This document shows, piece by piece, positions 1 to 22,389 of a DNA stretch of 29,122 bases. Origin of the DNA: an uncultured virus (IMG/VR IMGVR_UViG_3300042861_002400) (taxonomy: Duplodnaviria > Heunggongvirae > Uroviricota > Caudoviricetes); the IMG/VR virus record IMGVR_UViG_3300042861_002400; one strand, written 5' to 3'. Made by a program: the position numbers and the translations under genes. The notes beneath the pieces were generated by a model. That model saw nothing but the letters and a program-made list of their open reading frames with translations. It ran no database searches and was not told where the DNA came from. Position 1 is the stretch's first letter. Every line of letters begins with the position of its first letter.

Positions 1-29
1 TATGGGTTTCGAACAGTGTAAAATGAATG

Positions 30-222
30 AGTATATGTATACCCGTATTTTTGGTCCTAAGGATCTGTGGATCTTAGAACCTTGTTTTCGGCCAATAATC
101 GGGGTGTAAGATCGGCCTCCGGCGTCTAAGCCTAATTCTCATAAATGCGAGTCCGAAATTACGGACTTAATCGGTTTGTCATATATACTAAAAGTGTTCT
201 AAAAAAGATAGTATATGTATAC
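30..222. repeat. 13-bp direct repeat AGTATATGTATAC (30-42 and 210-222) in AT-rich region
   Basis: Read directly. Confidence 0.8.
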
Positions 223-306
223 TCTTATGGTATTAGTATAAGTATACGCTCTTTTCTAGAGCAAATTTTTGACCCCGTACAAATCGGTTGTGTCCGAAAT
301 TTTAAA

Positions 307-388
307 AAGTGGGACATTTTGTCACAGTCTAATCATCATGGTCATTATAATAACTATAGTGACTTAAGTGGGACATTTTGTCACAGTC
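307..388. repeat. Perfect 23-bp direct repeat AAGTGGGACATTTTGTCACAGTC (307-329 and 366-388), each copy an imperfect palindrome
   Basis: Read directly; core GACA-TTT-TGTC. It is followed by a TGACAAA...TTTGTCA inverted pair at 392-414. Confidence 0.9.
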
Positions 389-699
389 AGCTGACAAATA
401 CCGATCTTTTGTCAAACTGACAGAGCCAATGAACCGATCTGCCCTCGAATGCACGTGTCAATAGCCCAGAATCCAAGGCTCAAAGACCCCTCATTGGCCG
501 CCTTGGCGAGATGGGAATCCATGAATCTTTGGATCAATGAATTAAATGGATGCCCGTGCGGGAGGCATGGGCTCGACGGGTTATGCCGCCGCTCCCGCAC
601 AGGACTGCCCGTTGGGTCTTTGCGGACGGGTGGCCGCGAATCTCTTTGAATCAATGAACCAATGGCTCACAGAGCCGATGTCGACTACCGTTTAATGAG

Positions 700-729
700 G
701 CCCCGCCACCCATGGCTGGGTGACGGGGC
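700..729 (-). terminator. GC-rich hairpin just downstream of the minus-strand gene; possible terminator
   Basis: GCCCCGCCACCCA-TGGC-TGGGTGACGGGGC stem (one mismatch) 12 nt after the stop codon; the U-tract is weak. Confidence 0.45.
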
Positions 730-741
730 TGCGGCCTGCGC

Positions 742-1113
742 CTAGGCCAGGAACTCTTCCACGCTGGTCCCCAGGGCCAGGTTCCAGCGGGGCGCGTAGT
801 CGTCCGACTCTTCGAGGACGACGGGCACCTGCACGCCCTTCAGCGCGCCGGAGTCAACCTTGTGCGCCAGGTCGGCCAGATCCTTCGCGCCCAGCATGGC
901 CAGGCGGCGGCCGAACAGCCGCTTGTTGGTCTCGGCCTTCTCGCCGACGAGGCCCATCTGGGCGGGCGTGCATCCGACGATCACTTCGATCGGCTGATCG
1001 GCGGCGGTCGGGCAGTCTCCGGTCAACCGAACGTATCGGCTGGCGGCGCGTTCTGCCGTCGCGGCGAAGCGGTGCAGGGACGCAGTGGTCACGGTCATGA
1101 TGTATGCGGACAT
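742..1113 (-). CDS. Hypothetical phage protein (123 aa), divergent from the main operon
   Basis: GGAGG RBS 7 nt before ATG on the minus strand; GC-rich third positions; natural protein composition. Confidence 0.8.
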   Translation of the reverse strand: MSAYIMTVTTASLHRFAATAERAASRYVRLTGDCPTAADQPIEVIVGCTPAQMGLVGEKAETNKRLFGRRLAMLGAKDLADLAHKVDSGALKGVQVPVVLEESDDYAPRWNLALGTSVEEFLA

Positions 1114-1355
1114 AGTGTAGCCTCCAATGCGCGGCCCTGGTCCCCTTGCTCCCCGTCATGGGGTGGCATAGGGGAAAGGATTCTTTGCCGCGCCCAACAC
1201 TCGTCCCTCTTTGCTTGGGGATTTAACGCCCTGCGAAGCAGGGGGTGATGTTTCTTTCCCCGACCAGCCACGTATGCACGCAGGCACATTTTTGCCTAGG
1301 CGATCAGGCCGGCACCCTGTCAGGACAGCCATGAAAAAATATTGCGAAATTCCTG

Positions 1356-1384
1356 TGGACACCCTTCGAAAATTCTTATATGTT
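1356..1384 (+). promoter_or_regulatory. Sigma70-like promoter TGGACA-N17-TATGTT with upstream A-tract
   Basis: Near-consensus -35/-10 with 17-bp spacing; AAAAAATATT upstream; precedes the plus-strand gene chain. Confidence 0.6.
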
Positions 1385-1532
1385 TTCCCTTGACTCAGCC
1401 ACGAGGTACCCACCCGGCACCTCCGACAAGGAGCGGTAGACCCAGATAGGAGGGGTCAGGTATGCGGGTCTGGGCCCGCGGGTACCTCCTGGCGGTCTTA
1501 CGAAGAACCAACGAACCAAAGGAGACAAAGCA

Positions 1533-1715
1533 ATGAACGAGACCGAAAGCAAAGTAGTACGGACACTGATCATCGCTATAGCGGGCGTCATCGTATCAGG
1601 TGTCCTGATCCTATCGATCAGACACATGATCGTCGGGAGGATCGCCATCCAGAACGGCTACGAGCAGGTGCAGCTTGCCGGGACCGAAGGCGTTATGTGG
1701 CAAAAATCAAAGTAA
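1533..1715 (+). CDS. Small single-pass membrane protein (60 aa)
   Basis: AAAGGAGA RBS; hydrophobic stretch TLIIAIAGVIVSGVLILSI. Confidence 0.75.
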   Translation: MNETESKVVRTLIIAIAGVIVSGVLILSIRHMIVGRIAIQNGYEQVQLAGTEGVMWQKSK

Positions 1716-4416: not shown

Positions 4417-4643
4417 TGGCAACTGGAAATCAAGTGTTACGGGCCTACAACCGCGCGGCGAAGAGCGTCGCCAAAGATCAGGCCATGTCAAGCACCGCCG
4501 TATCGGCGGGCTACATCATCATCCCGAACGGGCAGAGGCGCGGGCAGCGCGAGGGCTACCAGGTCTTCGTCAAGCTGGTGAAGTTCAGCGAAATGAAACT
4601 GAAACTTGACCCGGAGTCGGGCGGACTGATGGGGGCGCTATGA
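4416..4643 (+). CDS. Small hypothetical protein (75 aa)
   Basis: AAAGGAG RBS; coupled to neighbours at both ends. Confidence 0.75.
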   Translation: MATGNQVLRAYNRAAKSVAKDQAMSSTAVSAGYIIIPNGQRRGQREGYQVFVKLVKFSEMKLKLDPESGGLMGAL

Positions 4644-5422
4644 ACCTGTTCAACATCTTCAAACCGAAACCCGTCTGGCCCGTTACGAACGCCCACACCA
4701 TGGGCGTCACCTGCGGCTTGACCCGCGTGAATCCCGACTACTATTACGGCTGGGACGGGAGATGCCCGGGATGCAGCCTGGACGCAGTCAACGTATCGCA
4801 CCAGTTGCGCCAGCGCAGCTTCGAGGTCAAGAACTTCACCGATGGCGAGGTCCGGTACCGGCCCGTCTTCGATGCCCTGCTGCAGTCATTCGACATACTC
4901 AAGGGCGACGATGACCTGCTGGTCTACTATTTCAGCGGACACGGTGGACAGGAGCCCGACCAGGACGGCGACGAGATCGACGGCCAGGACGAGACCCAGT
5001 GCTTCTTCGACGGGCCTGTCAAGGACGACAGCTTCCGCAGGCTCTGGCTCAAGGCGCCCCCGAAGCTGCGCATCGTCTTCATCAGCGATTCCTGCAACAG
5101 CGGCACCATGTCGCGGGTTTACCGCAGGGGCCGGCGTGGTGACCGGGTGCTCATGCTTCGACAACGCCCGAAGTCCCTGCGCAGGGCCCTGCCCGACGGC
5201 TTCAAGGGCCGGCTGCTGCATATCGCAGGCTGCCCCGACGGTATGTCCAGCTACGGCGGACTTACCGGCGGCGTCTTCACGACGGAGCTGCTCAAGGCGC
5301 TGCGTCCGGGCATCACCTACACCGACTGGTTCAATGAGGCAACCTCCCGGATGCCCCGGAATCAGGTGCCGCTGATGGAGTCATTCGGCGAGAGCTTCGC
5401 CAATCGGGTGGCGCTGACATGA
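4640..5422 (+). CDS. Metacaspase / caspase-family cysteine peptidase (Peptidase C14)
   Basis: GC..DA N-terminal motif, catalytic YFSGHG and ISDSCNSG motifs, acidic DQDGDEIDGQDET loop, p10-like GGVFT...QVP C-terminal part. Confidence 0.93.
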   Translation: MNLFNIFKPKPVWPVTNAHTMGVTCGLTRVNPDYYYGWDGRCPGCSLDAVNVSHQLRQRSFEVKNFTDGEVRYRPVFDALLQSFDILKGDDDLLVYYFSGHGGQEPDQDGDEIDGQDETQCFFDGPVKDDSFRRLWLKAPPKLRIVFISDSCNSGTMSRVYRRGRRGDRVLMLRQRPKSLRRALPDGFKGRLLHIAGCPDGMSSYGGLTGGVFTTELLKALRPGITYTDWFNEATSRMPRNQVPLMESFGESFANRVALT

Positions 5423-6054: not shown

Positions 6055-7857
6055 ATGCCCCAGACCTTTAAACGTAAATACGGTCTTGACTTTCCCGCGG
6101 ACTGGACCGACGTCCAGATCGAGCTCAAATGCTGGAAGCACTGGCGCGAGCCCACCTACAAAGCGGGGACGTTGAGGGACCCGCATGAGTGCTTCTTCCG
6201 GGCCATGCGCTCGGAGTACCAGCCCGGGCGTCGTGTCCTCGAGGCCGATGAGTGGATCGTCTCGCGCTGGTCGGAGGAGCACGTCTTCGACTGGACGATG
6301 GAGAGCGGCATCATCGTCTGGGGCTGCGCAGCCTCGTCGAAGTCGTGGGAATACGGCCTGCTGGCCGATGTCGATTGGTATGTCGACCCGAACAATACGA
6401 TCACACTCATGGCGTCGACCTCGAAGGACGCCCTGCTCAAACGTACTTTCGCCTCTGTCGTCCATTACCACCAGCTCTTCAAGATGAAGGGCGGACTGTT
6501 TCCCGGGCGCTATGTGCCATCGAAGTTCGCGGTCGTCCTCAGCGAGGATGACATCGAGGCCGCCTCCACAAAGACGGGTGTATGGGGCATCGCTGTCACG
6601 GACGGTCCCGTCGCCGAGGCGGTCGGCCGTATCCGCGGCATGCACGACGACTACGTCCGGCTTATCGTCGACGAACTGTCGGCGATGCCGCCGGCCGTCT
6701 GGGACAAGAAGCTGCGCCACAACCTGCGCGTCGGCGCGAACGACCTCAAGGTGATCGGCCTCACCAACATCGATGCAATAGACGACCTAGCCGGTCGTAA
6801 TTCGGAGCCGATCGGCGGCTGGGGCACGGTGAACATGGACACCGAGCTGTGGCGAACCCACCAGGGCATCGTCCGTCGCCATGACGGGTTCAAGTCTCCC
6901 GCCATCGTCGAACCCGATGGGGCGAAACGGTTCCCCCACCTGCTGACGCAGTCTGCTCTTGACGAGGCGATTAAGGAAGAGGGCGGCAATGCGGACGCAC
7001 CCGCCATTATTTCGATGTACAGGGCGTGGCCTCCGGACGTCTCCTCGAGGCCGGTGATCGTCACGCCCTCGCAGGCGACCAAGTGGGGCATGCGACCCGT
7101 CGCCGACCAGCGACCGAACTGGTTGTACCCGCCGATGGTGCTGGCCGGGCTCGACGGCTCGGGTGGCGGCGACAACATCGCCTTGCAGTTCCTGCTCTTC
7201 GGCATCGTCGCCAATGGAGAGCGATGGCTGTGGTTCGAACCCGAGGAGATCATCCCGATCAAGGCCGGAGCCGGCGAGATGCCGGTCACCGATCAGGTGG
7301 TCGCTTACTGCCTGCCGCGCTTCTCGACCATGAATCTGCAGCCGCAATACCTGGGCGTGGACGACACTGGCCCCCAGGGCCTCGCTGACGCGCTCTGCAG
7401 AGCCTGGTCGGCGGGCCTTCAGCGGTATTCTTTCAGCTCCTCAGCGACCGATATGGCGGTGTCGGCGTTCAACAAGAAGCCCGCCAAGGACAAGTACGCC
7501 GATCTAGTGACCGAGATATGCTACCTATACCACGAATACGGCCAGTATTCGCAACTTAAGAACGTCGGCCCCGCCATTCTCAGCCAGGTCACGACGCGCG
7601 AGGTGATCAGCCGCGGTAAGAAACTGGCGCTCATCGACAAGAAGACCTACAAGAAAAACACAGGCCGGCGTTCGCCCGACCAGATGGACGCGGGCGCAAT
7701 GGCGCTGGGTGTGGCGCGGCATATACTGGGCTTCGCACCCGGGTCGAAGGAGTTCTCACCAGACGGCCCGCCCGAACAGTTCACGACACCGGGCGTCGAG
7801 TTCGATCAGTCGGTCGTCGCGGCGATGAACAACCTCAAGAGCGATTACGGGTCCTAA
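6055..7857 (+). CDS. terL: Terminase large subunit
   Basis: Walker A-like WGCAASSKS, Walker B RLIVDE, nuclease motifs LAGLDGSGGGD and RSPDQMDA; 600 aa; upstream of the portal. Confidence 0.9.
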   Translation: MPQTFKRKYGLDFPADWTDVQIELKCWKHWREPTYKAGTLRDPHECFFRAMRSEYQPGRRVLEADEWIVSRWSEEHVFDWTMESGIIVWGCAASSKSWEYGLLADVDWYVDPNNTITLMASTSKDALLKRTFASVVHYHQLFKMKGGLFPGRYVPSKFAVVLSEDDIEAASTKTGVWGIAVTDGPVAEAVGRIRGMHDDYVRLIVDELSAMPPAVWDKKLRHNLRVGANDLKVIGLTNIDAIDDLAGRNSEPIGGWGTVNMDTELWRTHQGIVRRHDGFKSPAIVEPDGAKRFPHLLTQSALDEAIKEEGGNADAPAIISMYRAWPPDVSSRPVIVTPSQATKWGMRPVADQRPNWLYPPMVLAGLDGSGGGDNIALQFLLFGIVANGERWLWFEPEEIIPIKAGAGEMPVTDQVVAYCLPRFSTMNLQPQYLGVDDTGPQGLADALCRAWSAGLQRYSFSSSATDMAVSAFNKKPAKDKYADLVTEICYLYHEYGQYSQLKNVGPAILSQVTTREVISRGKKLALIDKKTYKKNTGRRSPDQMDAGAMALGVARHILGFAPGSKEFSPDGPPEQFTTPGVEFDQSVVAAMNNLKSDYGS

Positions 7858-8260: not shown

Positions 8261-8884
8261 ATGGGCTGGGAAGGGGTCAACATCGGCATACCCTGCCCCT
8301 TCACCGGGCGGCCGATCCTCGCCTGCCTGGCGGGATCCGCCTGGGTCGCTGTGAGCGAGGGGCCTGGCGGCGGGTGGGTGTCGACCCCGTTCCGGTCGCA
8401 GTCCGAGCTCAGGGATTTCTTCGTGGCGATGCCGCGGCGCGCTCCAGGCGAGCCGAGAGCCAAAGTGGACCGGACGTGCCCGATGATGGGGGCTCCGATC
8501 GTGGCGCGCCAGACGGGTAATTTTAACTGGGTGGCCTCGTGTATCGACGGGCGCGGCCGTGGCTACACCACGACAGCCTTCTATAGCGAACGCCACCTGG
8601 ACTATTTCTTGTCAACGCGGGCGGGAGTACCGCCCCTGTTCAACACGGACGATGTACAGGTCCGCGAGCGGAAGCCGCCGCGCCCGGACTTGGTGTTAGC
8701 GGAAGCGAAGTCTCGGCAGCAGGAGGTTGCGGGTCATGTCGAAGAGATCATTGACAAAGTCGGGCTTGCCAACGGTATTCTTGTTCCTAAGTCTATTGTC
8801 GGCCCCGCTACTCACACAGGCCGGGGACGTGGGGTTTCTAGCCCGCGGCACAAACGCGGTGCTGGTGCTCCCTCCGGCGGGTGA
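8261..8884 (+). CDS. Hypothetical protein with two tandem CP..G.PI...WVA...G.G....F.S...L..F repeats (207 aa)
   Basis: GGAAGGG upstream; internal duplication visible in the translation. Confidence 0.75.
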   Translation: MGWEGVNIGIPCPFTGRPILACLAGSAWVAVSEGPGGGWVSTPFRSQSELRDFFVAMPRRAPGEPRAKVDRTCPMMGAPIVARQTGNFNWVASCIDGRGRGYTTTAFYSERHLDYFLSTRAGVPPLFNTDDVQVRERKPPRPDLVLAEAKSRQQEVAGHVEEIIDKVGLANGILVPKSIVGPATHTGRGRGVSSPRHKRGAGAPSGG

Positions 8885-9269
8885 TGTCTCGGGCGCCCCG
8901 ACGTGGGCGACCGGTCGGGTCTACACCGCCGGGGCCAAGGTCCTGGCCGGCGTCGAAAATAAGCTGTATATCTGCTTATCACCCGGAATCTCCGGCACCA
9001 ACTCTGCGGTTTTCGGCGGTGGCACGGTTACTGACGGGACGGTCTTATGGAGGAGACCCCTCGGTCGGGCCCGAACCGGACTCGCGATCACGGTCGACGT
9101 GGCTGGCGATGCCTATGTCAGCATGGATGGCTTGGCCACGACGAACGCGGGCATCTGGTTGAAGGCGGGCTTTGGACCCTTCCAACTGTCCCCGTTCGGA
9201 GCGCCCCAGGGCGGGATCAGCGTGATCTCGACCTCGGCTACTTACACGGTCACCGGAGCGGAGTGGTAA
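8736..9269 (+). CDS. Signal-peptide protein with a CBM5/12-like carbohydrate-binding motif (177 aa)
   Basis: AGGAGG RBS; MSKRSLTK + hydrophobic core + TQA; W..G..Y..G..V......Y.C...G.SG......DGTVLW pattern. Confidence 0.75.
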   Translation: MSKRSLTKSGLPTVFLFLSLLSAPLLTQAGDVGFLARGTNAVLVLPPAGDVSGAPTWATGRVYTAGAKVLAGVENKLYICLSPGISGTNSAVFGGGTVTDGTVLWRRPLGRARTGLAITVDVAGDAYVSMDGLATTNAGIWLKAGFGPFQLSPFGAPQGGISVISTSATYTVTGAEW

Positions 9270-9277
9270 ACGCGATC

Positions 9278-9856
9278 ATGATGACGTTCCGCAGACCTCA
9301 ATATGCGCCGCCCGGGGGAGTCTACTTCTACGACGTCCCCGAGACGAAACGTCATTTCCAGCGCCTCAATATGCTTGACCTCGAGCGCGAGGTGGTTGCG
9401 CACCTCGTGGCATCTGGCATCAAGGTTCCGATCAACCTGCGGGCGGTCATCGAGCACTATATGTGCGAGCGCCTCCCAGAGGGCCTGTGTGACGGGAGCG
9501 GATCCGCCGCCCTGCGTCATCTGCGTCAGCCCAACTATTTCGAGGTCCTGAATGCGCTACCCGCCCAACTAGGGGGCGGTAAGTTCGTTGATGCGCGCAC
9601 CGCGGAGAGCCGTGCGACTACCTGCCGGACCTGTCCCTTCAACAATCTCTCGCTCTGCACCTCCTGTAACGACCTCCAGCAGCAGACGACTCGTTACGTC
9701 GGCGGCCGGGAAGTCATGCAGCTTCGCTATATGGGCGTGTGCGCCGGCCTGCGCGTCCCGACTTACGGTCTCGTCTGGATCGCCCAGCCGAAGGCTGTCG
9801 AGGGCCTCCCCGCCGAGTGCTGGATAACCGCCAAAGGAGCCCCCACCCATGCCTGA
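9278..9856 (+). CDS. Cys-rich, probably metal-binding protein preceding the portal (192 aa; start ATG 9278)
   Basis: RATTCRTCPFN..CTSC plus MC..C, VC and ECW motifs. Confidence 0.75.
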   Translation: MMTFRRPQYAPPGGVYFYDVPETKRHFQRLNMLDLEREVVAHLVASGIKVPINLRAVIEHYMCERLPEGLCDGSGSAALRHLRQPNYFEVLNALPAQLGGGKFVDARTAESRATTCRTCPFNNLSLCTSCNDLQQQTTRYVGGREVMQLRYMGVCAGLRVPTYGLVWIAQPKAVEGLPAECWITAKGAPTHA

Positions 9857-12284
9857 TTTCACACAGCCCGCCGCCGACGGCAACCGCCAGATCGTGGACC
9901 GTTCCGGGATGCCGGTCTCGCGCAGTTTGCCGACAATCGAGGTCGCCCGGGCCGTCGTCCAGGAGATGGAGAAGGTTGAAGAGCCGACCGCCATCCGTCA
10001 TGCGCGCCTGCGTGGGCTGGCCGATCGCAATCCCCCGTATAACCAGAAGAAACTTGACGATCTCAATATGGGGAACATCACCAATATTGACTTCGGCGAA
10101 GCGCAGGCGGCCATCCGGAAGCGCTCTGGCCAGCACTTCGAATTATTCCAGGAGGTCCCCACCCTGGCTGACTTCGAGCTGGTCGAGCCGCCCGATGAGG
10201 CGAAGAATGGGCAGGACGTCCAACCGCGGGCGGCCCTCGAGTCAATCGTCGGCGAAGAGTTTACCCGGACGCTGACCGGCTGGTCCGGCTTCCTCCCGCT
10301 CATGGATTTCCTGCGGCAGGAGGCGGACACGGTCGACGTCGGTGTATGCGGCTGGCGCGACCAGTGGGACTGGCGTCCGGTGCAGACCAGCCGCGGCGCG
10401 TTCTTCCCGTCCCCATACGCCAAGATCGACGTGACCACCTGGGACATCGCCATGGTCGCGGACACCTATGAGACCAGCGTCCTCCTGGCCATCGCAAGCG
10501 ACCCCGAGTCGGCGACCGCGGAGGGCTGGAACGTCACCATGCTCAAGCGGGTGCTGGCTGACGTCTTCTTTGGTGGCGTTACGCAGGACACTCAGAACGG
10601 CGTCGACACCGGCTACGCGACAGTGTCCCGTTGGGAACAGTTGCAGATGAAGTTGCGCAACAACGACCCGTCTTGTATGGCCAATATGTTTTCGCTCGTC
10701 AAGGTCCGGCACATGTTCGTCCGGGAGCCAATGAGCGGCCGTATCTCCCATCAGATCCTCCCGACGGTCGTGTGCGGCGAGGGTGACGGTTTCCTCTGCG
10801 AGCGATTCGGCATTTACAAGGATATGTCCGAGGCGATTTTCATCCTCCCGTCCAATTACGGGAACGGATACGTCCGTAGCGTCCGCGGGCTGCTCTCCTC
10901 GATCGAGGCTCACTGCGATCTGTCCAACCGGTTCCTCGGCCGCATCATGGACGCAGGATTCCTGTCCGGCACCCTCATGCTCAAGAACAACGCGGAGTAT
11001 AGCGACCCGCGCAAGCTCCAGTTGGTCCGTGCCGGTTCTGTTACTTTACTGCCCCGTGGCTGCGAGGCGCTGCAGGCGTCGAGTTTCGCCCCGCCGCTCG
11101 CCCCCATGGTCCAGGTCCGTCAGCTCTCGACGGCGATCATGCAGAACAACAACGGCGTCGATAAGGTCGTTACCGAGAACTGGGTCGAGAACCAGGCTCA
11201 GCGGACCGCCCGCGAAGTTTCCGAGCAGTCGACGAAGGAAGCCCGGGTCGAGAAGTCCGGCGTCGCCTTCGACCAGCAGCAGCTGCAGCTTCTCTACCGC
11301 CAAATGTATCGCCGGTTGATCGGCGAGGATGTGCAGTCCGACAAGACCCTGCCCGGCGCCGAGGAGGCCCAGGACTTTGTTCGTCGCTGCGTCCGCCGCG
11401 GCGTCCCGCGCACGTGGCTGAAGCCAGGCAAGCTGCAGCTCAACATCACCCGTACGATCGGTTTCGGCAGCTGGGGCGTGCGCCTCGACATCAGCAATCA
11501 AGTGATCGGCATGCGCGGGCTCATGGACGAAGCAGGCCGGCACAACGCCATCCGCGATCGCCTGGCCGCCCTCGTCGGTTACCGCAACGTCAACCGCTAC
11601 CTCCCGCCCGCCACCCGCGATACGATCCCCTCGAATGAGAAGTCGATCGCCCGGCTTGAGAACAATGATATGGCCGCTGGCGAGCCCTGCGAGGCCGGAT
11701 CGGATCAGAATCAGGTCCTCCACTTCGAGACCCACCTTGAGCCGATGAAAATGATTTCCGATGCCGTTGCGAACGGCGAGCAGGTGGATGTGCAGATCGC
11801 GCTTCCCGCAATCGAGCAGATGATCAATCACGAGACGCAGCATCTGCAGTTCCTCGCGATGGACCCGGCCCGGGCGGCTTATGTGAAGCAGGCGGAAGAG
11901 CAGATCAAAGCGGCCATCAAGGCGCGGGACGAGCTTGTCCGTATCGCCGAGCAGATGGCCGAGGAGCAGCAGCAGATGCAGGCCGACCAAGAGGGCCGTC
12001 TGGCGAAGGCCGACGAGATCATCCAGGGTCAGGAGGCAAACCTCGAGGCCCAGAAGGCCGCGGGCAAGCTGCAGATCGAGGCCGACAAGAACTTGAGCAT
12101 CATGAATATGCGCCAGTCGCGCCAGGAGCACGGCGAGGCGATGGCCGAGCGGGACCTCAATGCGCGGATCGTTCGTCAGGACCGCGAATCAGCCGCCCGG
12201 ATCGAACTCGAGCGGCAGAACCTCGCCCTCAAAGCCGAGATCGAGCGGATGAAGGCGGCGCAGGGAGGCGGCAGCAATGGATAA
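9849..12284 (+). CDS. Portal protein, P22-like with a long C-terminal coiled-coil
   Basis: 811 aa; AAAGGAG RBS; position between terminase and scaffold/capsid; Q/E/A-rich helical C-terminal ~150 aa. Assigned by size, synteny and architecture. Confidence 0.8.
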   Translation: MPDFTQPAADGNRQIVDRSGMPVSRSLPTIEVARAVVQEMEKVEEPTAIRHARLRGLADRNPPYNQKKLDDLNMGNITNIDFGEAQAAIRKRSGQHFELFQEVPTLADFELVEPPDEAKNGQDVQPRAALESIVGEEFTRTLTGWSGFLPLMDFLRQEADTVDVGVCGWRDQWDWRPVQTSRGAFFPSPYAKIDVTTWDIAMVADTYETSVLLAIASDPESATAEGWNVTMLKRVLADVFFGGVTQDTQNGVDTGYATVSRWEQLQMKLRNNDPSCMANMFSLVKVRHMFVREPMSGRISHQILPTVVCGEGDGFLCERFGIYKDMSEAIFILPSNYGNGYVRSVRGLLSSIEAHCDLSNRFLGRIMDAGFLSGTLMLKNNAEYSDPRKLQLVRAGSVTLLPRGCEALQASSFAPPLAPMVQVRQLSTAIMQNNNGVDKVVTENWVENQAQRTAREVSEQSTKEARVEKSGVAFDQQQLQLLYRQMYRRLIGEDVQSDKTLPGAEEAQDFVRRCVRRGVPRTWLKPGKLQLNITRTIGFGSWGVRLDISNQVIGMRGLMDEAGRHNAIRDRLAALVGYRNVNRYLPPATRDTIPSNEKSIARLENNDMAAGEPCEAGSDQNQVLHFETHLEPMKMISDAVANGEQVDVQIALPAIEQMINHETQHLQFLAMDPARAAYVKQAEEQIKAAIKARDELVRIAEQMAEEQQQMQADQEGRLAKADEIIQGQEANLEAQKAAGKLQIEADKNLSIMNMRQSRQEHGEAMAERDLNARIVRQDRESAARIELERQNLALKAEIERMKAAQGGGSNG

Positions 12285-14421
12285 GGTCATTACCGAATAC
12301 TGTCCGCTCTGCGCGATCAAGCATATCGCTCGCGCGAAGGCGCGCCTGGCCGAGTCAAAGCTGGGCTATCCGCACGAGTTTTGGAGTGCGCTGGGGGAGA
12401 TCAGTCTAGCCGAGGATCACCTCGTCGAGCAGCAACCCGCCCTCGCCGAGGCGATCCGGGAGCATCGTAAGAAGCTTGAGAGCGCACCACTGTACCGGTT
12501 CCCCGCAAACAACTTGATGCTGGCGGTCGCTGATGTGACCGGGTACGCACTCCCCGCCGCGGCGACCAGCTGGCTGCAGAAGATCCGATCACGCTGGTTG
12601 GCCAGTCTGCTTGCGATCGTCACGGCCGTCGGGGCCCAGGCCGGCGGGATGTCGGTCACCCACCATGGCGCCACGGCTGGGTGGTTCTCGATGGTCCGTC
12701 CGTATATCAGCTCGGCCCTGAGTCTGGCTGAAACTCCAGACCTCGTGGCCTGGTTCAAGATGGACGACAATGCCAATGACTATGTGCTGACGGACTCGTC
12801 CTGGTACAACTACCCAGGAGCCTTGTCTATCGCTTATACCGCCTGGCTAACTGTCGACGGTGTTTCCGGAACAGCGCTTGCTTTCAATGATGTCGGGGGA
12901 TCATCGGTGGCAGTAGCATCAGGTCCCGCACTGCTTGCGGCACTCTCCGGCACAGGGGACTACACGATAAACATGTTCGCGAAACGGGCGAACAATTCAG
13001 AGCATGCTTCGCTTTTCATAATAGACGGACACCCTTTTAATGTAAGCTACTACAACAAGGACGTGGGCCAATTGTTGTGGTACGGACATGAGGCGACAGC
13101 GACTGCAGTAGTCGATCTTGAAGTCGACGAATGGTACATGATTACCTATGTAAAATCAGGGTCGTCATCCAGGGTGTATGTTGATAATGAAGTAGGGGTT
13201 ACAGTAGGGTCGCCTACCCTTACTCCTCTCACGGCCACATCATTTACTTTTGGCGGGGCCCCAGAAAGCCCTGGGAATACACGGACCATTGATGACGTCA
13301 AAGTGTTCAAGAGAGCGCTCTCCCCCAGCGAGATCATGTCGTATGGGTACGGGCTTGTGGCTCGGTACCCAATGGACGACAATGCCGCCAACAGGATCAT
13401 GACGGACACGACAGTATATTCGAACAACGCTGTACTTGGCACCGGAAACACCGATGCAAAGGCCGCGCCAGGCATTATCGGGACGGCTTTTTCTTTTGCT
13501 GCCTCTGATTATACTTTGATAACGAATCGGATGGTCACATCGCTCGTAAGCAGCAATGACTCCGAATACACTATTTCCTATTTCTTCAAGTTGCTTGACG
13601 ACGGGCATGTTGATATGGGTGGTCTCGAAGGAATGTACTTCGACCTGTGGTTCTATGACGATAACGAGAGTGTAATTAGCCTATTTCCTGGCGGAGCCGT
13701 TGACGTCGCAAAGGCTCCCCTGACGGCACAGCTTGACACGTGGTATCATCTGGCGATCGTGCGAAAAGGAGAGACGGCTACAGTGTATGTCAATGGTCAA
13801 GCCGGGACTGACACGGGAACATATGAGGCACTGGTATCTCCTGCCACATCTGTCAGGCTCGGCTACCTCGGGTACCAGGACGGCGCCCAGGTTGTCGATG
13901 ATCTCCGTATCTATAATCGCGCCCTCACGGCCCGGCAGATCGGCTTGATCTGCGCCGAGGGCGGGATCTCTCCTACGGCGCCCACGGTTGAGTACGTGGT
14001 GGATCCGACTTGCGCGAACGGCCTTTGGAATACGTACTCCTATTACGACCCAGAGGATCCCAACGGCGACCCCGGGTTCTGGTTCTACCCGGGCTCTCCT
14101 AGCGGACTTGCTTTCTGGTGTGCTAACTATGAGTACCCTCCGTACGCGAGTCCTATCATAGCGAGCATCACGCCGGATATCAAGTTATCCGACATGCAGC
14201 CTGGAAGCACATATACAATCGTGATCAACATCGCCGGCATCTACAGTACAGAATCGGCCTCTGTATATGTCGGAGGGAATAGTTACTCGCTCGTCGAAGG
14301 GAACAACGTCATTCAGTTTATTCATGACGGTTACACTCCCAATCTCACGTTCTATTCGTTTAGTCCTTCGATATATGCGAGCATCAGTTCCATCAACATT
14401 TACGCGGGGGTGCCACAATGA
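12277..14421 (+). CDS. Tandem LamG/concanavalin A-like domain protein with an N-terminal CxxCxxKH helical domain and an internal signal-like segment
   Basis: LVAWFKMDD...WYMITYV...IDDVKVFKRALSPSEI and LVARYPMDD...WYHLAIV...VDDLRIYNRALTARQI. Confidence 0.88.
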   Translation: MDKVITEYCPLCAIKHIARAKARLAESKLGYPHEFWSALGEISLAEDHLVEQQPALAEAIREHRKKLESAPLYRFPANNLMLAVADVTGYALPAAATSWLQKIRSRWLASLLAIVTAVGAQAGGMSVTHHGATAGWFSMVRPYISSALSLAETPDLVAWFKMDDNANDYVLTDSSWYNYPGALSIAYTAWLTVDGVSGTALAFNDVGGSSVAVASGPALLAALSGTGDYTINMFAKRANNSEHASLFIIDGHPFNVSYYNKDVGQLLWYGHEATATAVVDLEVDEWYMITYVKSGSSSRVYVDNEVGVTVGSPTLTPLTATSFTFGGAPESPGNTRTIDDVKVFKRALSPSEIMSYGYGLVARYPMDDNAANRIMTDTTVYSNNAVLGTGNTDAKAAPGIIGTAFSFAASDYTLITNRMVTSLVSSNDSEYTISYFFKLLDDGHVDMGGLEGMYFDLWFYDDNESVISLFPGGAVDVAKAPLTAQLDTWYHLAIVRKGETATVYVNGQAGTDTGTYEALVSPATSVRLGYLGYQDGAQVVDDLRIYNRALTARQIGLICAEGGISPTAPTVEYVVDPTCANGLWNTYSYYDPEDPNGDPGFWFYPGSPSGLAFWCANYEYPPYASPIIASITPDIKLSDMQPGSTYTIVINIAGIYSTESASVYVGGNSYSLVEGNNVIQFIHDGYTPNLTFYSFSPSIYASISSINIYAGVPQ

Positions 14422-14922: not shown

Positions 14923-15171
14923 ATGAAGCATGTTTTCATAACGACGCTGTTGTTTCTCCTGGGGCTTGCTATTTCCGGTTGCGCAACTGGCGAGGGCACG
15001 AAGCAGTACAATTTTGGCGATAACTATTTCATGACCTTCGTGAGCTCGACCAATACACCGGTCGAACTCTTGATCGACATGTATAACCAGACCGCGGAGT
15101 CCGCGACTGGACGGGATCGCACAACGAAACCGAGCGCGGAGCTCACAGTGCCGGTATCGGCGCTGCCATAA
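14923..15171 (+). CDS. Small lipoprotein (82 aa), possible o-spanin-like or exclusion protein
   Basis: MKH + hydrophobic core + lipobox ISG|C. Confidence 0.75.
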   Translation: MKHVFITTLLFLLGLAISGCATGEGTKQYNFGDNYFMTFVSSTNTPVELLIDMYNQTAESATGRDRTTKPSAELTVPVSALP

Positions 15172-15185
15172 AGGAGACAAGGGTC

Positions 15186-15527
15186 ATGACTGCAAAAGCA
15201 GCAATGGGAGGGGCGGTGTCGAAACTATCCTTGTGGGTTACCATACTGTTGGGGGTCGCCTCGTGGACGTATGCACAGAATGTCAGCGACGTGATCAAGG
15301 TCGCTGATTCGGTGACCTCGGCCAGCGCGGACGATCCTCTGCTCGCGGTCATCAAGATCCTCGCCGTCGTCGACATTGTGTCGTTGGCGTTCAACTATGT
15401 GCTGGTGCGCAGTCTGGTGAAGGCTACGGAGAGCACGACTTCGATGGCGGCAAAGCCTTGCGTGCTGGCCCACGCCAACCCGCAACTATTCGCCAAGATT
15501 CTGGAAGGAGCGAACCGGCATGAGTAG
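15186..15527 (+). CDS. Holin-like membrane protein (signal/TM plus second TM)
   Basis: AAAGGAGA RBS; two hydrophobic segments; adjacent to a peptidase and a lipoprotein. Confidence 0.55.
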   Translation: MTAKAAMGGAVSKLSLWVTILLGVASWTYAQNVSDVIKVADSVTSASADDPLLAVIKILAVVDIVSLAFNYVLVRSLVKATESTTSMAAKPCVLAHANPQLFAKILEGANRHE

Positions 15528-17920: not shown

Positions 17921-18181
17921 ATGAAGATTAGACCGCTGGGAGACAGGGTGCTCGTCCAACCCAAGAAGGACGTTGAAGTGAGTCGGGGAGGGATCTACAT
18001 CCCCGACAACGCCAAGGAGAAACCGCAGGAAGGGAAAGTCTTTGCCGTGGGCGCCAAGGCGCTCAGCGTTAAGCCAGGCGACCGGGTGCTCCTGCCGAAA
18101 TACGGCGGGTCCGAGGTCCGCGTGGAGGACGTCACCTACCTGCTCGTCAAGGAAGAGGACATCCTCGGGATCCTCGATTGA
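17921..18181 (+). CDS. groES: Co-chaperonin GroES (Cpn10), short 86-aa form
   Basis: MKIRPLGDRVLV, mobile loop SRGGIYIPDNAKEKPQEG, VKPGDRVL..KYGG.EV, LVKEEDILGIL. Confidence 0.97.
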   Translation: MKIRPLGDRVLVQPKKDVEVSRGGIYIPDNAKEKPQEGKVFAVGAKALSVKPGDRVLLPKYGGSEVRVEDVTYLLVKEEDILGILD

Positions 18182-18445: not shown

Positions 18446-20086
18446 ATGCCCGCTATCAACGGCACCAGTCTCGAAGTTCAGAACCGGATTATCCAGGCCG
18501 ACGGCCTGATGGTCCAGATGCAGGAGCATTTCGACCCGTTCATCCTGAACTGGCAGCTCAAGCATCCGTCCATGTTCCGCGATCGTATTCCCATGGCCAA
18601 GTATCCGGCCTTCTCCGGAGTCAGCCAGGAATCCTTCATTTTCCGCGGCTCCAATGACGCCGATCAGGCGGGTCTTGCCGACTGGCGTGATGTGACGCCC
18701 TCCGCGAAGGCCAATGGGGCCAACCCGGCGAACGACCGCTGCACCTACCTGCCCAAGACCTATTCCTGGTCCTGGGACAAGATCGGCTACTCCGGCAAGC
18801 GCCGGGAGTGGAAGAGCCCCGTCTTTTGCGTGATGGATCTCTACACGCAGGACGCGGCCAAGGAGCAGCTGTCCATGATCATCACGGCAGGCGCCGAGGT
18901 GGTCGACCAGACCCGCGAAGTGTATAACCGCGAGATGTATATGGATCTCGCGACCAAGGCCGGCAAGTTCGTGGTCCTGGCTGAAGGCATGGGCCTGAGC
19001 TACCTCGACACCGCCCTCACCCGCGTGTCCTACAACCCCGCCGCCCTCGACGCGGAGAACGATACCTACATCGAGTTCGATGCGGCCCTGTTCAATCGCA
19101 TCTCGACCTTGAACTGGTCCCCCTTCAACCTGATCCGCGCCTACATGGCCGACGCCGCCCCCGACGCCGCCCAGGGCATGGATTCCGGCATGCCGGTGTT
19201 CACCCTCCTGATCGATCTGCTCGACTTCGAAGAGATGATCTTCAACGACCCGAAGGTCCGCGAAGACATGCGCTATGCCGATGCCAAGCAGCTGATCAGC
19301 GGCTACAACATGGGCTTCAAGATCTATCGCGGCATGGGCATTGTCCATGACGTGCGCCAGGCCCGCTATGACGGCGGCAAGATTGGCACTGGTCTGAACG
19401 TAGGCCCCCTGCAGGGCCAGCCCGTGGTGCGCTGCAAACGCATCAAGCCCCGGCGCGCGGTGCGCCCCGGCGTGGTCGGCATGATCCCCGAAACCAATCC
19501 CGAATACATCACGGCGCCCTATGGCACCGCGGTGCTGTTCCTGAACAACGTGGCCCAGGTGCTGGTGCCCGATCCGATCAACAACCTCGGTTCTGGCCTG
19601 ACCTTCGGCCCCGCCCCGGGCTTCAACGGCCAGTGGCAGTGGGTGAACAACAAGGGCCCGGACAACCCGATCGGCGAAGTCGGATACTTCTTCAGCCGCT
19701 TCGAGTATCACCTGCGCGCGATGCGTTATGCTGAGCACGCGATGGTGATCCTGTACAAGCGCTGCCAGCAGGTCATCGCGACCAACTGCCCGATCGACAC
19801 CGCGCTCAACGCCAAGAACAGCGCGACGCTGTCCGCGGCGCCCGTCGCGGCCGACTTCAGCGCAGCGGCCTGCACGGTCGAGCTGAAGCTCACCAACCTG
19901 CTCGCGGCCGGCGTGGGCAAGAAGGTCACGATCAAGAAGGACGACGCGGCTACCTTCGAAGCGTTCATCATGGACGCCTCGACCGCCCCCGTCTACACCT
20001 TCGGGTGGACCTCTGGTGGCACGAACGCCCCCACGGCGGTGGGCGAGATCAACGACACCGCCATCGTCACCGTGACGGTGGCCTAA
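18446..20086 (+). CDS. Major capsid protein (546 aa; start ATG 18446) with a ~90-aa C-terminal beta-rich extension
   Basis: GGAGG RBS; own promoter and downstream hairpin; very strong codon bias; follows the scaffold. Assigned by synteny and expression signals. Confidence 0.82.
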   Translation: MPAINGTSLEVQNRIIQADGLMVQMQEHFDPFILNWQLKHPSMFRDRIPMAKYPAFSGVSQESFIFRGSNDADQAGLADWRDVTPSAKANGANPANDRCTYLPKTYSWSWDKIGYSGKRREWKSPVFCVMDLYTQDAAKEQLSMIITAGAEVVDQTREVYNREMYMDLATKAGKFVVLAEGMGLSYLDTALTRVSYNPAALDAENDTYIEFDAALFNRISTLNWSPFNLIRAYMADAAPDAAQGMDSGMPVFTLLIDLLDFEEMIFNDPKVREDMRYADAKQLISGYNMGFKIYRGMGIVHDVRQARYDGGKIGTGLNVGPLQGQPVVRCKRIKPRRAVRPGVVGMIPETNPEYITAPYGTAVLFLNNVAQVLVPDPINNLGSGLTFGPAPGFNGQWQWVNNKGPDNPIGEVGYFFSRFEYHLRAMRYAEHAMVILYKRCQQVIATNCPIDTALNAKNSATLSAAPVAADFSAAACTVELKLTNLLAAGVGKKVTIKKDDAATFEAFIMDASTAPVYTFGWTSGGTNAPTAVGEINDTAIVTVTVA

Positions 20087-20157: not shown

Positions 20158-20499
20158 ATGAAGAAGTTTCTCGCTCTGTTCCTCGTCGCCCTCCTGGGCC
20201 TGACCTTCGTTGCCGCCGCCGACACGACCACGGTCGTCACCAATGCCCTCGGCATGGTGATTACCAAGGTCACCAAGGCCGACGGTTCCTTCACGACCAC
20301 GATCAGCACTGGGACGTCAGTCGCCGTGCCGGTCACCTATCGTGAGGGCATCTCGGTGTTCACCGATACCAACGCCTATCCGGTCACTGCCTCGGCAACC
20401 TACTCGAATGCGGCTTCCATCGGCGACATGCTGATCGGCACCTTTTCGAACAAGGTCTGGGTGCTGACCCGTAAGGGCGTGTTCACCCTCGTCAACTAA
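20158..20499 (+). CDS. Thr-rich signal-peptide protein (113 aa) in head-decoration position
   Basis: AGGAG RBS; MKKFLALFLVALLGLTFVAAA|D; strong codon bias. Confidence 0.85.
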   Translation: MKKFLALFLVALLGLTFVAAADTTTVVTNALGMVITKVTKADGSFTTTISTGTSVAVPVTYREGISVFTDTNAYPVTASATYSNAASIGDMLIGTFSNKVWVLTRKGVFTLVN

Positions 20500-20512
20500 A
20501 TTGGAGGCCGAC

Positions 20513-21025
20513 ATGCGCAAGTTCCCGGTTATCATGAGCGCGTTGTTCCTCGTTCTCGGCAGCTTCGTGGCTGCCGCGGCCGACTACGACGCCAAGGCGG
20601 TTGACGATGCGATCCGGCTCGGCAAGGACGGCCCGTACGCGATCCAGGATCTCCTGGTGACGCGCACGGTCACCCTTCCGGCGAGTTCGGTCCCGCAGAC
20701 TGCGCTGGCGGGAATGCCCGTCGGGGCCTCCTGGCTGGCCGTGACCAATGGGCAGGTCCTCACGCTCACTCCCGGGCAGATTCTCTACGTTAACGCGGTA
20801 GGGAGCGCCCAGGATGCGACGAATACCGTTACGATCAATACCGACTTCGCCGCCTCGTTGCTGGGGAAGCCGATCCTGCTGGTCAATCACTTCTATGCGA
20901 CCAATGATATTGCGATCGATATCGATGGGAATCTGTACGGGGCGGAGAACCTCGTATTGAGGGACGGCGGATCTGCGCTGTTCATCCCGGTCGCGACGAA
21001 TGCGCTGTATCTTTTCGGGCGGTAA
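20513..21025 (+). CDS. Beta-rich signal-peptide protein (170 aa; start ATG 20513)
   Basis: GGAGG RBS; MRKFPVIMSALFLVLGSFVAAAA|D. Confidence 0.85.
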   Translation: MRKFPVIMSALFLVLGSFVAAAADYDAKAVDDAIRLGKDGPYAIQDLLVTRTVTLPASSVPQTALAGMPVGASWLAVTNGQVLTLTPGQILYVNAVGSAQDATNTVTINTDFAASLLGKPILLVNHFYATNDIAIDIDGNLYGAENLVLRDGGSALFIPVATNALYLFGR

Positions 21026-21044
21026 CGCCAGTTGAGTTTTGAAT

Positions 21045-21114
21045 GGGTGCCTCGGTAGGGGCCGGGCGTGTCTCCCGCCGTGGCAGTACTACCGAGGCGC
21101 CCTTTCTCTTTCTT
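21045..21114 (+). terminator. Long hairpin with nested inner stem and pyrimidine tail
   Basis: GGGTGCCTCGGTAG (21045-21058) pairs with CTACCGAGGCGCCC (21089-21102), followed by TTTCTCTTTCTT. Confidence 0.6.
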
Positions 21115-21128
21115 AGGAGGATCGATCG

Positions 21129-21485
21129 ATGGACTGCCCGAACTGCTATGTCAACGCCTCACCCGAGAGCGTCCCCGTCCAGGTGACGAACCTGGCGGTC
21201 GCGACGTCCCTCGGCGACGAGCTCGTGAAATGGGTTAATCTCACCTTCCATTTGGCGGACTCGGCAAGTACTGACGGGCGCACCTTCCTACTGGCCGACG
21301 GGGCCGAAGAGTATGAGATCGCCGACGTCAAGGAGGTCGAGGTCATCATCAACAACATCACCCAGCCGCCGACGGTCTACGCGATCTCGGGTGACGTGAC
21401 CCAGGTGATTCTCGCGGCCGAGCACGCGATCACGGCCGACGACGTTGTCCGGGTCAAGGCGCTGGTCCGGGTGGTCGCAGTATAA
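21129..21485 (+). CDS. Small virion/tail beta-domain protein (118 aa), no signal peptide
   Basis: AGGAGG RBS; DG.TF.L...V.IN.I.Q.P..Y.I.G....I.......DDVV pattern resembling phage tail/baseplate repeat domains; N-terminal CPNC. Confidence 0.7.
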   Translation: MDCPNCYVNASPESVPVQVTNLAVATSLGDELVKWVNLTFHLADSASTDGRTFLLADGAEEYEIADVKEVEVIINNITQPPTVYAISGDVTQVILAAEHAITADDVVRVKALVRVVAV

Positions 21486-21498
21486 GGAGACGTTCTTC

Positions 21499-22389
21499 AT
21501 GAAGCACCGTTTTGTTTCCCTGATTCTCGTTCTGGCCGCCTCCGCCGGCCTGGCCGCAGAACTCGTCCCCTCCCGGATGGTTTCGCATACGAACGGGATC
21601 CCCAACCTGTCCACCAATCGCAATGTCGAACTGATCCTGCGGGACGTCAATGCGAAGTGGCCGGTCAACATCAACCCAGCGCTCGTTTATGTTGACACGA
21701 ACTTCCTAGCCGGGTTCGGCTATGCGACGACGGGGGCGGTCCAGCAGGCGACCGGAGCCCTGGCCGCAGCCACGGCGTCCAGTCTTGCTGCCCGCATGCC
21801 CGGCACCAATCTGGCTGATGCGACTTACACTGCCTTGAACCAGACGTGGAACATCAACTGGGGCGGCAAGACCGGCGTCTGGCAGGTCATCGAGTACGCG
21901 GTCTACACGAATCCAGTCGCCATGACTAAATATACGAACTCAGCATTCACGGTATTGAACACGGCATCGAACTGGGTCCTGCAATCGGGAAATCAGAATG
22001 GCAACCTATCCTTGACCGATGGTGGTAGTCAACTTGTAGTTCCTGCGCGCACCGTTGCGATCATGTATACAGCCGGGACTGTATTCACGAAATGGACAAA
22101 CTCGGTAGATGTGACAGCCTACTTGATCCGGGGCAGTGGAACCAGTGTCGGCACTGTGTTTGCCCACGACAAGGAAGCAGATGACTATGGTGATCCCATA
22201 ATCAAACGGTGGAGCAGCGTGAACGGCATGGTCATGTGCCGACCGACCGCAGCTGACAGAAAATATTCTCTTCGCGCAAGTCTGTGGGCCGAGGCTCACT
22301 CGACGAATACCATTCAAAAGATGGGTGTAGCTTGGAAGCAGTGGCAGATAATGTTGTTCCAACTCAACACTGATGATCCCGCAGAGTAA
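21499..22389 (+). CDS. Signal-peptide, TN-rich fibre/adhesin-like protein (296 aa; start ATG 21499)
   Basis: AAGGAGA RBS; MKHRFVSLILVLAASAGLA|A; beta-rich C-terminal half. Confidence 0.8.
   Translation: MKHRFVSLILVLAASAGLAAELVPSRMVSHTNGIPNLSTNRNVELILRDVNAKWPVNINPALVYVDTNFLAGFGYATTGAVQQATGALAAATASSLAARMPGTNLADATYTALNQTWNINWGGKTGVWQVIEYAVYTNPVAMTKYTNSAFTVLNTASNWVLQSGNQNGNLSLTDGGSQLVVPARTVAIMYTAGTVFTKWTNSVDVTAYLIRGSGTSVGTVFAHDKEADDYGDPIIKRWSSVNGMVMCRPTAADRKYSLRASLWAEAHSTNTIQKMGVAWKQWQIMLFQLNTDDPAE

Follow-up and report, generated by a model that had tools for sequence, protein, structure and literature searches.

Known systems and the locus under study

The only bacterial O-glycosylation with a known sequence motif is, according to a 2025 review (PMC12871550), the general system of Bacteroidota, which acts at D-(S/T)-(hydrophobic) sites and whose transferase is given there as undiscovered. 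A second source (PMC12645811, Table 1) places the targets of the O-oligosaccharyltransferases PglL, PglS and TfpO at Ser, in Ala/Pro-rich disordered stretches or at the C-terminus. In a preprint (bioRxiv 10.64898/2026.09.21.753134), human TMEM260 is described as a Thr-preferring O-mannosyltransferase whose sites lie on the first β-strands of immunoglobulin (Ig)-like IPT domains and follow a degenerate sequence motif, Px6Px3Px2GGx3T; distant bacterial homologues of TMEM260 are mentioned in another study (PMC10214176, PNAS 2023). The present analysis concerns positions 20158–22389 of a 29-kb piece of a tailed-phage contig, hereafter the window (the whole stretch of DNA analysed, 29,122 nucleotides), and the Thr-Asn pair (T-N as a unit, TN where pairs are counted) that recurs in the predicted exported proteins encoded there. 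In this uncultured phage clade, T-N is under selection as a unit of two residues and distinguishes those Sec-exported proteins that resemble fibres or lectins.

The likeness to the Bacteroidota system lies in a three-residue motif that is read only in non-cytoplasmic proteins, with a hydrophobic residue downstream of the acceptor; furthermore, Bacteroides thetaiotaomicron carries a TMEM260-like gene. In contrast to the motif D-(S/T)-(A/I/L/V/M/T), here Asn follows Thr, the hydrophobic preference falls at T+3, and Asp at position -1 of TN occurs at only 0.9-fold of background. Moreover, Ser is not used, the phylum is a different one, and T-N does not simply occur in a protein class but is three-fold enriched there. 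With O-mannosylation by metazoan TMEM260 (and TMTC1-4), the parallels are a homologous GT-C enzyme with TPR repeats in TN-rich genomes and, for the animal enzyme, a Thr-preferring acceptor, β-strands of Ig-like domains, the secretory pathway and primary-sequence recognition. The human motif is, however, not T-N, and the function of the bacterial homologues is putative. The crowding of N-x-S/T sequons in viral and archaeal proteins is similar in its dense short sites on exposed, attachment-type exported proteins, but in the phage proteins studied here N-x-T and N-x-S stand at 1.01 and 0.82 times expectation, and STT3 (PF02516) was not found in the TN-rich, possibly incomplete Verrucomicrobiota genome G006. 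Mycobacteriophage virions reportedly (in the work of Freeman et al. 2023) also bear glycans on structural proteins; the difference is that these are said to be added by phage-encoded cytoplasmic glycosyltransferases, without export and without a T-N unit. Unlike the PglL, PglS and TfpO targets, the T-N context is β-like and Ser is not used, and none of the O-oligosaccharyltransferase families tabulated in PMC12645811 uses T-N. The T-N unit belongs to no described sequon family. A literature search with little coverage of subscription journals returned no paper that describes a T-N tag, leader-bearing tail fibres of this type or what bacterial TMEM260-like proteins do.

Thr-Asn pairs in the window

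The stretch lies directly after the capsid gene (coordinates are collected in Table 1) and encodes three proteins with canonical cleavable leaders, SP20158, SP20513 and SP21499, together with a leaderless protein. Five further leader-bearing proteins start at 8736, 14418, 14923 (with a lipobox), 15186 and 22373. All eight signal-peptide (SP) proteins have, by sequence, a Sec-type leader with a basic n-region, an h-region of at least 10 hydrophobic residues and small residues at -3/-1. The preliminary description of this DNA had claimed that Asn is unusually often preceded by Thr or Ser in five of them. Its hand counts are reproduced exactly: the [TS]N pairs account for 4 of 5 Asn in SP20158, 4 of 9 in SP20513 (all TN), 9 of 23 in SP21499 (8 TN), 3 of 4 in SP8736 and 5 of 11 in SP14418, and the terminase and the portal protein hold one TN each, as low as stated.

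The excess survives correction for Thr and Asn content. In composition-preserving shuffles of the mature parts, the 20 TN of these five proteins (5.7 expected) were reached in 0 of 100,000 shuffles. Since the proteins had been picked after the pattern was seen, the three unlisted SP proteins were added, and the resulting 22 TN (6.9 expected) were again reached in 0 of 100,000. The three SP proteins within 20158–22389 alone give 14 TN against 4.3 expected (1 of 100,000 shuffles), while the 24 non-SP proteins of the window give 18 against 16.0, a count reached in 6,696 of 20,000 shuffles. Among the 223 testable dipeptides in the SP set, TN ranks first (Poisson p = 1e-6). The excess is individually evident in SP21499 (8 vs 2.3 expected, p = 0.0012) and SP8736 (3 vs 0.43, p = 0.003), and there is no individual excess in the proteins starting at 14923 (1 TN), 15186 (none) and 22373 (1 TN).

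The related pairs lie at expectation in the SP set, with SN at 5 against 4.15, NT at 8 against 6.4 and NS at 4 against 4.15. Consequently, the bias is one of T-N, directional, rather than of T/S-N: the Ser half of the earlier claim falls away, whereas the reversed order relative to N-X-S/T stands, neither NT, NS nor Asn-x-Ser/Thr being enriched. A motif at the DNA level was rejected, because the codons of both residues vary (ACC/ACG/ACA for Thr, AAC/AAT for Asn); the signal therefore resides in the protein.

Replication in related phage loci

The capsid protein has 55 homologues in public data (27–92% identical), plus the window's own. Through the capsid alignment (A1), 82 related loci were collected (capsid identity 26–50%), and the + strand open reading frames (ORFs) were called with a simple ORF picker and leader heuristic in the 51 loci of at least 4 kb that gave ORFs. 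After removal of near-duplicates (at least 50% identity), 140 SP ORFs and 242 non-SP ORFs were retained. The former contain 526 TN against 182.8 expected (2.88-fold, z = 25.4), which ranks TN first among 1,600 residue pairs (gaps of 0 to 3); the next pair is SG, with z = 7.4. The non-SP ORFs show a 1.17-fold ratio. Thr precedes a median fraction of 0.33 of the Asn residues in the SP ORFs vs 0.05 in the non-SP ORFs, and individual significance (p < 0.05) is reached by 53/140 vs 9/242. The bias is present in nearly every related locus, over a range of guanine-plus-cytosine (GC) content from 45 to 67%. Neither N-x-T (183 vs 182.0 expected) nor N-x-S (113 vs 138.0) is enriched in the 140 SP ORFs, and local T/N-rich patches were rejected as a cause, given that NT, TxN and NxT all lie at expectation.

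SP ORFs of each of the three charge classes show the excess (2.4- to 3.0-fold). Among the low-charge non-SP ORFs, 13 of the 16 TN come from a single 5'-truncated ORF, which begins at base 14 of its contig and whose leader may be missing for that reason; no other non-SP ORF has a strong excess. Compositionally similar proteins that are not exported therefore do not match the exported ones, in agreement with the earlier proposal.

An independent sample was obtained with a 48-residue profile (A4) of the SP20513 adaptor without its leader, which was searched against 1.84 billion cluster representatives and matched 182 proteins. Among the 150 matches listed, the adaptor starts at about residue 19–31 in nearly all, and 145 pass the leader heuristic. 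This sample reproduces the bias (TN 444 vs 190 expected; SN 108 vs 115; NT 137 vs 190). A cultured relative did not emerge, as no capsid match was found among 50,697 phage records; a single-protein scan of viral contigs likewise gave no match.

Anatomy and conservation of the T-N unit

The context of the unit is T-N-x-hydrophobic, with 48% of the residues at T+3 being W, I, L, F or V, vs 26% in the background. Relative to Thr, β-branched residues are enriched at -2 and hydrophobic ones at +3, +5 and +6; Lys, Glu and Arg are depleted around TN, and Pro directly after Asn occurs at 0.4-fold. Within the SP ORFs, the pairs ending in Asn show ratios of 2.88 for Thr, 1.27 for Ser and less than 1 for every other residue, and of the pairs starting with Thr only TN exceeds 1 (TD 0.80, TG 0.90). 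The sites are spread evenly along the proteins, with spacings below 4 residues avoided (2 observed vs 21 expected) and those of 10–20 slightly favoured.

The pair is conserved as a pair. In 168 pairwise alignments of orthologous SP ORFs (30–85% identity; the pairs are not independent), Asn is conserved in 59% of cases inside TN vs 28% elsewhere and Thr in 73% vs 51%. Both residues were kept at 406 sites, only Thr at 127, only Asn at 27 and neither at 174. The resulting odds ratio for co-retention is 20.2; adjacent pairs taken together give 1.5, and the second-ranking of 92 dipeptides gives 8.7. T-N is thus under purifying selection as a unit. In the SP20158 family, which comprises 31 ORFs next to the capsid gene in related loci, the alignment of 26 sequences (A2) shows, besides M1, only three near-invariant residues, T28, N29 and G32, which lie where the mature protein begins. 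In the AlphaFold2 (AF2) model of SP20158 (pLDDT 70.9, about 90 around the site), T28 ends a strand (23–28) and N29 opens the loop NALGM. This is the only well-modelled site, and at this strand-to-loop junction it is not visibly buried; the possibility of buried TN sites, raised in the preliminary description as a point that would count against a recognition motif, is not borne out there.

These features are also what a lineage-specific structural habit would produce, in which Thr closes a β-strand and Asn opens a tight turn or arc within a recombining pool of fibre and lectin modules, with no enzyme to read the pair. The modelled position of T28 and N29, the β-branched and hydrophobic flanks, which fit a strand-turn-strand arrangement, the spacing, and the strong preference for Thr over Ser, as expected of a strand residue, are all consistent with it. 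In an Asx-turn, however, the first position of the loop would accept Asn, Asp or Gly alike, and neither TD nor TG is enriched; a plain turn preference is disfavoured because both would then be favoured as well. Furthermore, the compositionally similar non-exported proteins of these phages lack the bias, it runs across several unrelated domain types, and the co-retention odds ratio lies far above the value of every other dipeptide. Two exported adhesins of Escherichia coli with a similar build, Ig-like and β-helix, do not show it either (TN 11 vs 19.7 expected in YeeJ, 4 vs 8.3 in Ag43). A purely structural origin is regarded as possible, somewhat less probable than the tag reading given below and its main rival.

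Nature of the exported proteins

Compared with the core genes, the SP proteins evolve at a far higher rate. Laminin_G_3 domains occur in five of the 60 largest SP ORFs of the relatives and a phage tail collar domain in three, one of which matches a solved short tail fibre; weaker single matches were obtained to pectate-lyase-like, Gly_rich_2 and GLUG models. The TN bias spans several of these types (Laminin_G_3, phage tail collar, pectate-lyase-like). Proteins of the SP20513 type consist of a conserved N-terminal adaptor and variable distal parts, which is the usual build of receptor-binding proteins. Because of these domains and this build, the SP proteins look like fibre or lectin modules that are predicted to be exported.

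The window's own SP proteins gave no Pfam match above the cut-off. A search of 5.8 billion clusters returned SP21499 itself and no further homologue; its structural neighbours in the Atlas are TNF/C1q/BclA-C-like, with TM values below 0.5 that make them a lead only. The SP20158 model had no match in the PDB at E<=0.001 (Foldseek), and the AF2 model of SP20513 is too poor for use (pLDDT 59.9). SP8736, whose family has 8 members, shows a weak PHROG match to 'head decoration' (E = 2.7e-5).

The T-N signature on the host side

Relatives of the capsid gene occur in three metagenome-assembled genomes (MAGs): on a 2.7-kb contig in the Verrucomicrobia-labelled G001, and on phage-sized contigs in the Eubacteriales-labelled G002 and the Oscillospiraceae-labelled G003. 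The binning of phage contigs is weak evidence of the host. The leader-bearing ORFs in general are unbiased in all three, with 32 TN against 30.2 expected in G001, 23 against 24.4 (0.94) in G002 and 32 against 29.1 (1.10) in G003, both of the latter being labelled as Bacillota.

G006, of the same phylum as G001, behaves differently: 418 kb give 113 TN against 68.2 expected. The excess derives from a few giant secreted proteins (29 vs 7.2, 17 vs 5.7, 15 vs 4.2 and 12 vs 3.3), which have no detectable sequence similarity to the phage ORFs; the ordinary periplasmic ORFs of this genome show no bias. A search with the N-terminal 330 residues of one giant found the family in 30 of 301 genomes of the phylum. 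For the 23 ORFs at the matching loci with at least 15 Asn (the longest ORF per locus, bounded by loci of about 3.5 kb), TN is enriched 2.38-fold, next to SN 1.20, NT 0.80, TD 1.05 and TG 1.07; the excess is significant on its own (p < 0.01) in 12 of the 23, and T+3 is once more enriched in hydrophobic residues. The T-N signature of the phage SP proteins is common to this giant secreted family of Verrucomicrobiota. The preliminary description had named a TN bias in the exported proteins of Verrucomicrobiota/Kiritimatiellota as a pointer to a host of the Planctomycetota–Verrucomicrobiota–Chlamydiota (PVC) group. This link is half right, because the general leader-bearing ORFs of 40 genomes of the phylum (at most 20 kb sampled from each) are flat (153 TN vs 182.2 expected), and one class of giant surface proteins carries the enrichment.

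In G006, the genes of two TN-rich proteins, a secreted one of 2,072 aa and one of 742 aa, are grouped with four small genes of the prepilin type (FTLIELLVV-like N-termini) and one that resembles PilM (L164, G006:C3:1-20000). The small pilin-like genes themselves lean TN-rich (3 vs 1.1 and 3 vs 0.7). Separately, the SecY match of this genome (G006:C22:10577-11630) is interrupted by a single in-frame TAA; the gene may be broken, the assembly wrong or the stop recoded.

The L164 cluster is compatible with a distributed sorting code, in which T-N patches would be read by a host system that moves folded periplasmic proteins to the surface or the medium (type II secretion, pilus-like) or anchors them; the 742-aa protein is pseudopilin-K-like by eye, and the unbiased ordinary periplasmic ORFs of G006 would fit as well. 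To our knowledge, however, no secretion system recognises a dispersed dipeptide, and the case comes from one genome and one cluster whose pilin and PilM readings were made by eye. Such a code appears improbable.

A TMEM260-like candidate enzyme

PF11028, the TMEM260-like family, is present in 5 of the 5 strongest TN genomes, in 1 of 14 control genomes (B. thetaiotaomicron) and in 109 of the 301 genomes of the phylum. It occurs in 26 of the 30 genomes with the giant family vs 83 of the 271 others (Fisher p = 3e-9). The enrichment of the giant-family homologues follows its presence: in 25 PF11028-positive genomes (the query genome left out) TN stands at 226 vs 89.5 expected (2.52-fold), and in four negative genomes at 13 vs 12.2 (1.06-fold); were the enrichment equal, so low a count in the latter would have P = 2e-4. 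With a length of about 1,000 aa, the bacterial proteins carry a TMEM260-like domain followed by TPR repeats and match the sequence of the human TMEM260 structure (E = 5.5e-15). G001, the MAG with the capsid-gene fragment, also has a PF11028 match (E = 1e-12).

Two other candidates, PMT_2 and Wzy_C, were set aside: both are present in 5/5 TN-rich genomes, and they are uninformative because each is also present in 9/14 controls. A Pfam scan of 19 replication-side ORFs of a 57-kb phage relative gave no glycosyltransferase; the enzyme, if there is one, would be the host's.

Interpretation

Collectively, these findings favour a tag, because the enrichment is tied to leaders across charge classes and domain types, Asp, Gly and Ser are excluded, the pair is selected as such, the pattern is restricted to a lineage and it is associated with an enzyme. 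T-N would then be recognised outside the cytoplasm by a lineage-specific process of the host envelope, most likely O-glycosylation of Thr by a periplasm-facing GT-C enzyme, with the TMEM260-like homologue of O-mannosyltransferases (GT-C domain and TPR repeats) put forward as the candidate; the phage would export its proteins and the host would dress them like its own surface proteins. We infer an enzymatic reader of the tag and, with it, the identity of the enzyme, the modified residue, its modification and the role of the exported proteins. That T-N is a tag on Thr for an extracytoplasmic modification by the host has a probability somewhat short of even. As the specific reader of such a tag, a TMEM260-like enzyme is a tentative and rather doubtful choice. 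Quite speculative as a whole is the most complete version, according to which T-N(-x-hydrophobic) would be the acceptor tag of an undescribed PVC protein O-mannosylation run by TMEM260-like GT-C/TPR enzymes, a second motif-driven bacterial O-glycosylation, and the phage clade would send its fibre and lectin proteins through Sec for glycosylation by the host, either as host-mimicking decoys or as virion parts added after lysis. The extracytoplasmic host motif of the preliminary description thus retains its tie to leaders, none of the checks capable of refuting it having done so, and loses Ser, while glycosylation itself stays a prediction.

Several observations weigh against an enzymatic tag of this kind. 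The confidently modelled T28/N29 site, a strand end followed by a loop, may be explained by a purely structural role. The leader heuristic is simple and author-made, not a trained predictor, and recovers 7 of the 8 window leaders; the A4 search found no leaderless homologue that could serve as a natural control; and the fold-matched comparison of laminin G (LamG) proteins is small and underpowered (TN 18 vs 11.8 expected in six proteins, 1 vs 2.3 in two). On the host side, the sole Verrucomicrobia-labelled link is the 2.7-kb contig, the exported proteins of the phylum at large lack the bias, and G002 and G003, the Bacillota-labelled MAGs with related phage contigs, have no PF11028. The association with PF11028 ignores shared ancestry and rests on four negative genomes, and in the PF11028-positive genomes of the 40-genome sample, G006 excluded, the general SP ORFs hold about 45 TN vs 43 expected (a hand sum). 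Furthermore, the human TMEM260 motif differs from T-N, and no STT3 was found in G006.

Two further explanations fare less well than those already discussed. The pairs could be cleavage or ligation sites of a clan-CD peptidase specific for Asn, possibly the caspase-like protein of the phage itself, since the window encodes a Peptidase_C14 protein (E = 9e-17) and since plant legumains, according to PMC13052201, need Asn at P1 and prefer Leu/Ile at P2', which resembles N-x-hydrophobic. The legumain P2 position is, however, described there as broad and not Thr-specific; with one site in every 60 residues the proteins would be cut to pieces, the window peptidase is leaderless, and the scan of 19 replication-side ORFs gave no C14 match in the 57-kb relative, whose exported proteins are TN-rich. 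This makes the peptidase explanation highly improbable. Chance, composition or a gene-calling artefact, to which the Thr-rich proteins, their choice after the pattern had been seen and the crude leader caller and ORF picker might point, was rejected and retains a negligible probability, as the count is reached in 0 of 100,000 shuffles also when the three SP proteins that had not been selected are included, NT, TxN and NxT lie at expectation, and the bias is replicated in the independent global sample of adaptor matches.

Organization of the window and related contigs

The window belongs, according to the collection records, to a parent contig of about 91 kb; its GC content is high (about 60%) and its genes lie on the + strand. 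The terminase, portal and capsid assignments come from the preliminary description and found no Pfam or PHROG match.

Table 1. Coordinates of the features of the window discussed in the text (aa, amino acids).
Feature	Coordinates	Strand	Description
Peptidase_C14 caspase-like protein	4640-5422	+	leaderless; upstream of terminase
Terminase	6055-7857		1 TN
SP8736	8736..9269	+	177 aa, predicted exported; 3 TN among 4 Asn
Cys-rich protein	9278-9856	+	192 aa; just before portal
Portal	9849-12284		1 TN
LamG protein	12277-14421	+	714 aa; after portal
SP14418	14418..14912	+	164 aa, predicted exported; 3 TN and 2 SN among 11 Asn
Protein with lipoprotein-type leader	14923-15171	+	lipobox LAISG/C (cleavage before C) by sequence; no TN excess
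Protein with leader or anchor	15186-15527	+	no TN excess
GroES co-chaperonin	17921-18181	+	directly upstream of capsid gene
Major capsid protein	18446..20086	+	marker for collecting relatives; 4 TN vs 1.9 expected, not significant
SP20158	20158..20499	+	113 aa, predicted exported; first gene after capsid; n/h/c leader ending AAA/D
SP20158, TN residue 28	20239-20244	+	
SP20158, TN residue 71	20368-20373	+	
SP20158, SN residues 83 and 97			
SP20513	20513..21025	+	170 aa, predicted exported; conserved N-terminal adaptor and variable C-terminal part; 4 TN (residues 78, 103, 130, 162)
Leaderless protein	21129..21485	+	118 aa, between exported genes; 1 TN vs 0.45 expected
SP21499	21499..22389	+	296 aa, predicted exported; 8 TN among 23 Asn; strongest case in window
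SP22373	22373..23041	+	222 aa, predicted exported, Ala/Lys-rich; 1 TN, no excess

Small leaderless ORFs like the one between SP20513 and SP21499 occupy the equivalent position in two related contigs. The two adjacent proteins with a lipoprotein-type leader and a leader or anchor lie between the LamG gene and a scaffold-like gene and may form a spanin-like lysis pair. The LamG protein carries two Laminin_G_3 domains, an internal hydrophobic segment near residues 105–125 and a conserved Cys-containing N-terminal module, common to L008 and G003:C12; it has 1 TN among 33 Asn, unlike the leader-bearing LamG proteins of the relatives. The Cys-rich protein before the portal is among the best-conserved genes of the clade (22 matching ORFs in related loci) and has no family match. 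The phage-encoded GroES matches PHROG 3188 (E = 5e-21). For the caspase-like protein, no homologue was found among the ORFs of the related loci, which stop short of that upstream region. The left end of the window (1-1700) has a lower GC content (0.56) and no convincing ORF chain; the ORF at 145-420 is oddly Tyr/Ile/Ser-rich.

Among the relatives, the phage contigs G003:C12 and G002:C4 (L106-L110) encode single giant ORFs, of 5,681 and 3,995 aa, downstream of the tail-side genes; on the opposite strand of the 57-kb contig lie genes for a family A DNA polymerase, for helicases and for a PD-(D/E)XK nuclease.

Implications

Virion parts are usually viewed as made and assembled in the cytoplasm. 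If the present reading is true, these tailed phages would use the export and modification pathway of the host for their fibre-like proteins, which runs against that view. If the tag is read by an enzyme, it would provide a sequence-level handle on protein glycosylation in Verrucomicrobiota and a first function for the bacterial relatives of human TMEM260. Should T-N prove to be no more than a structural habit, it would remain the strongest export-linked dipeptide bias among the sets tested and a useful marker of this protein class. Furthermore, the T-N signature could serve as a host-prediction marker for uncultured phages.

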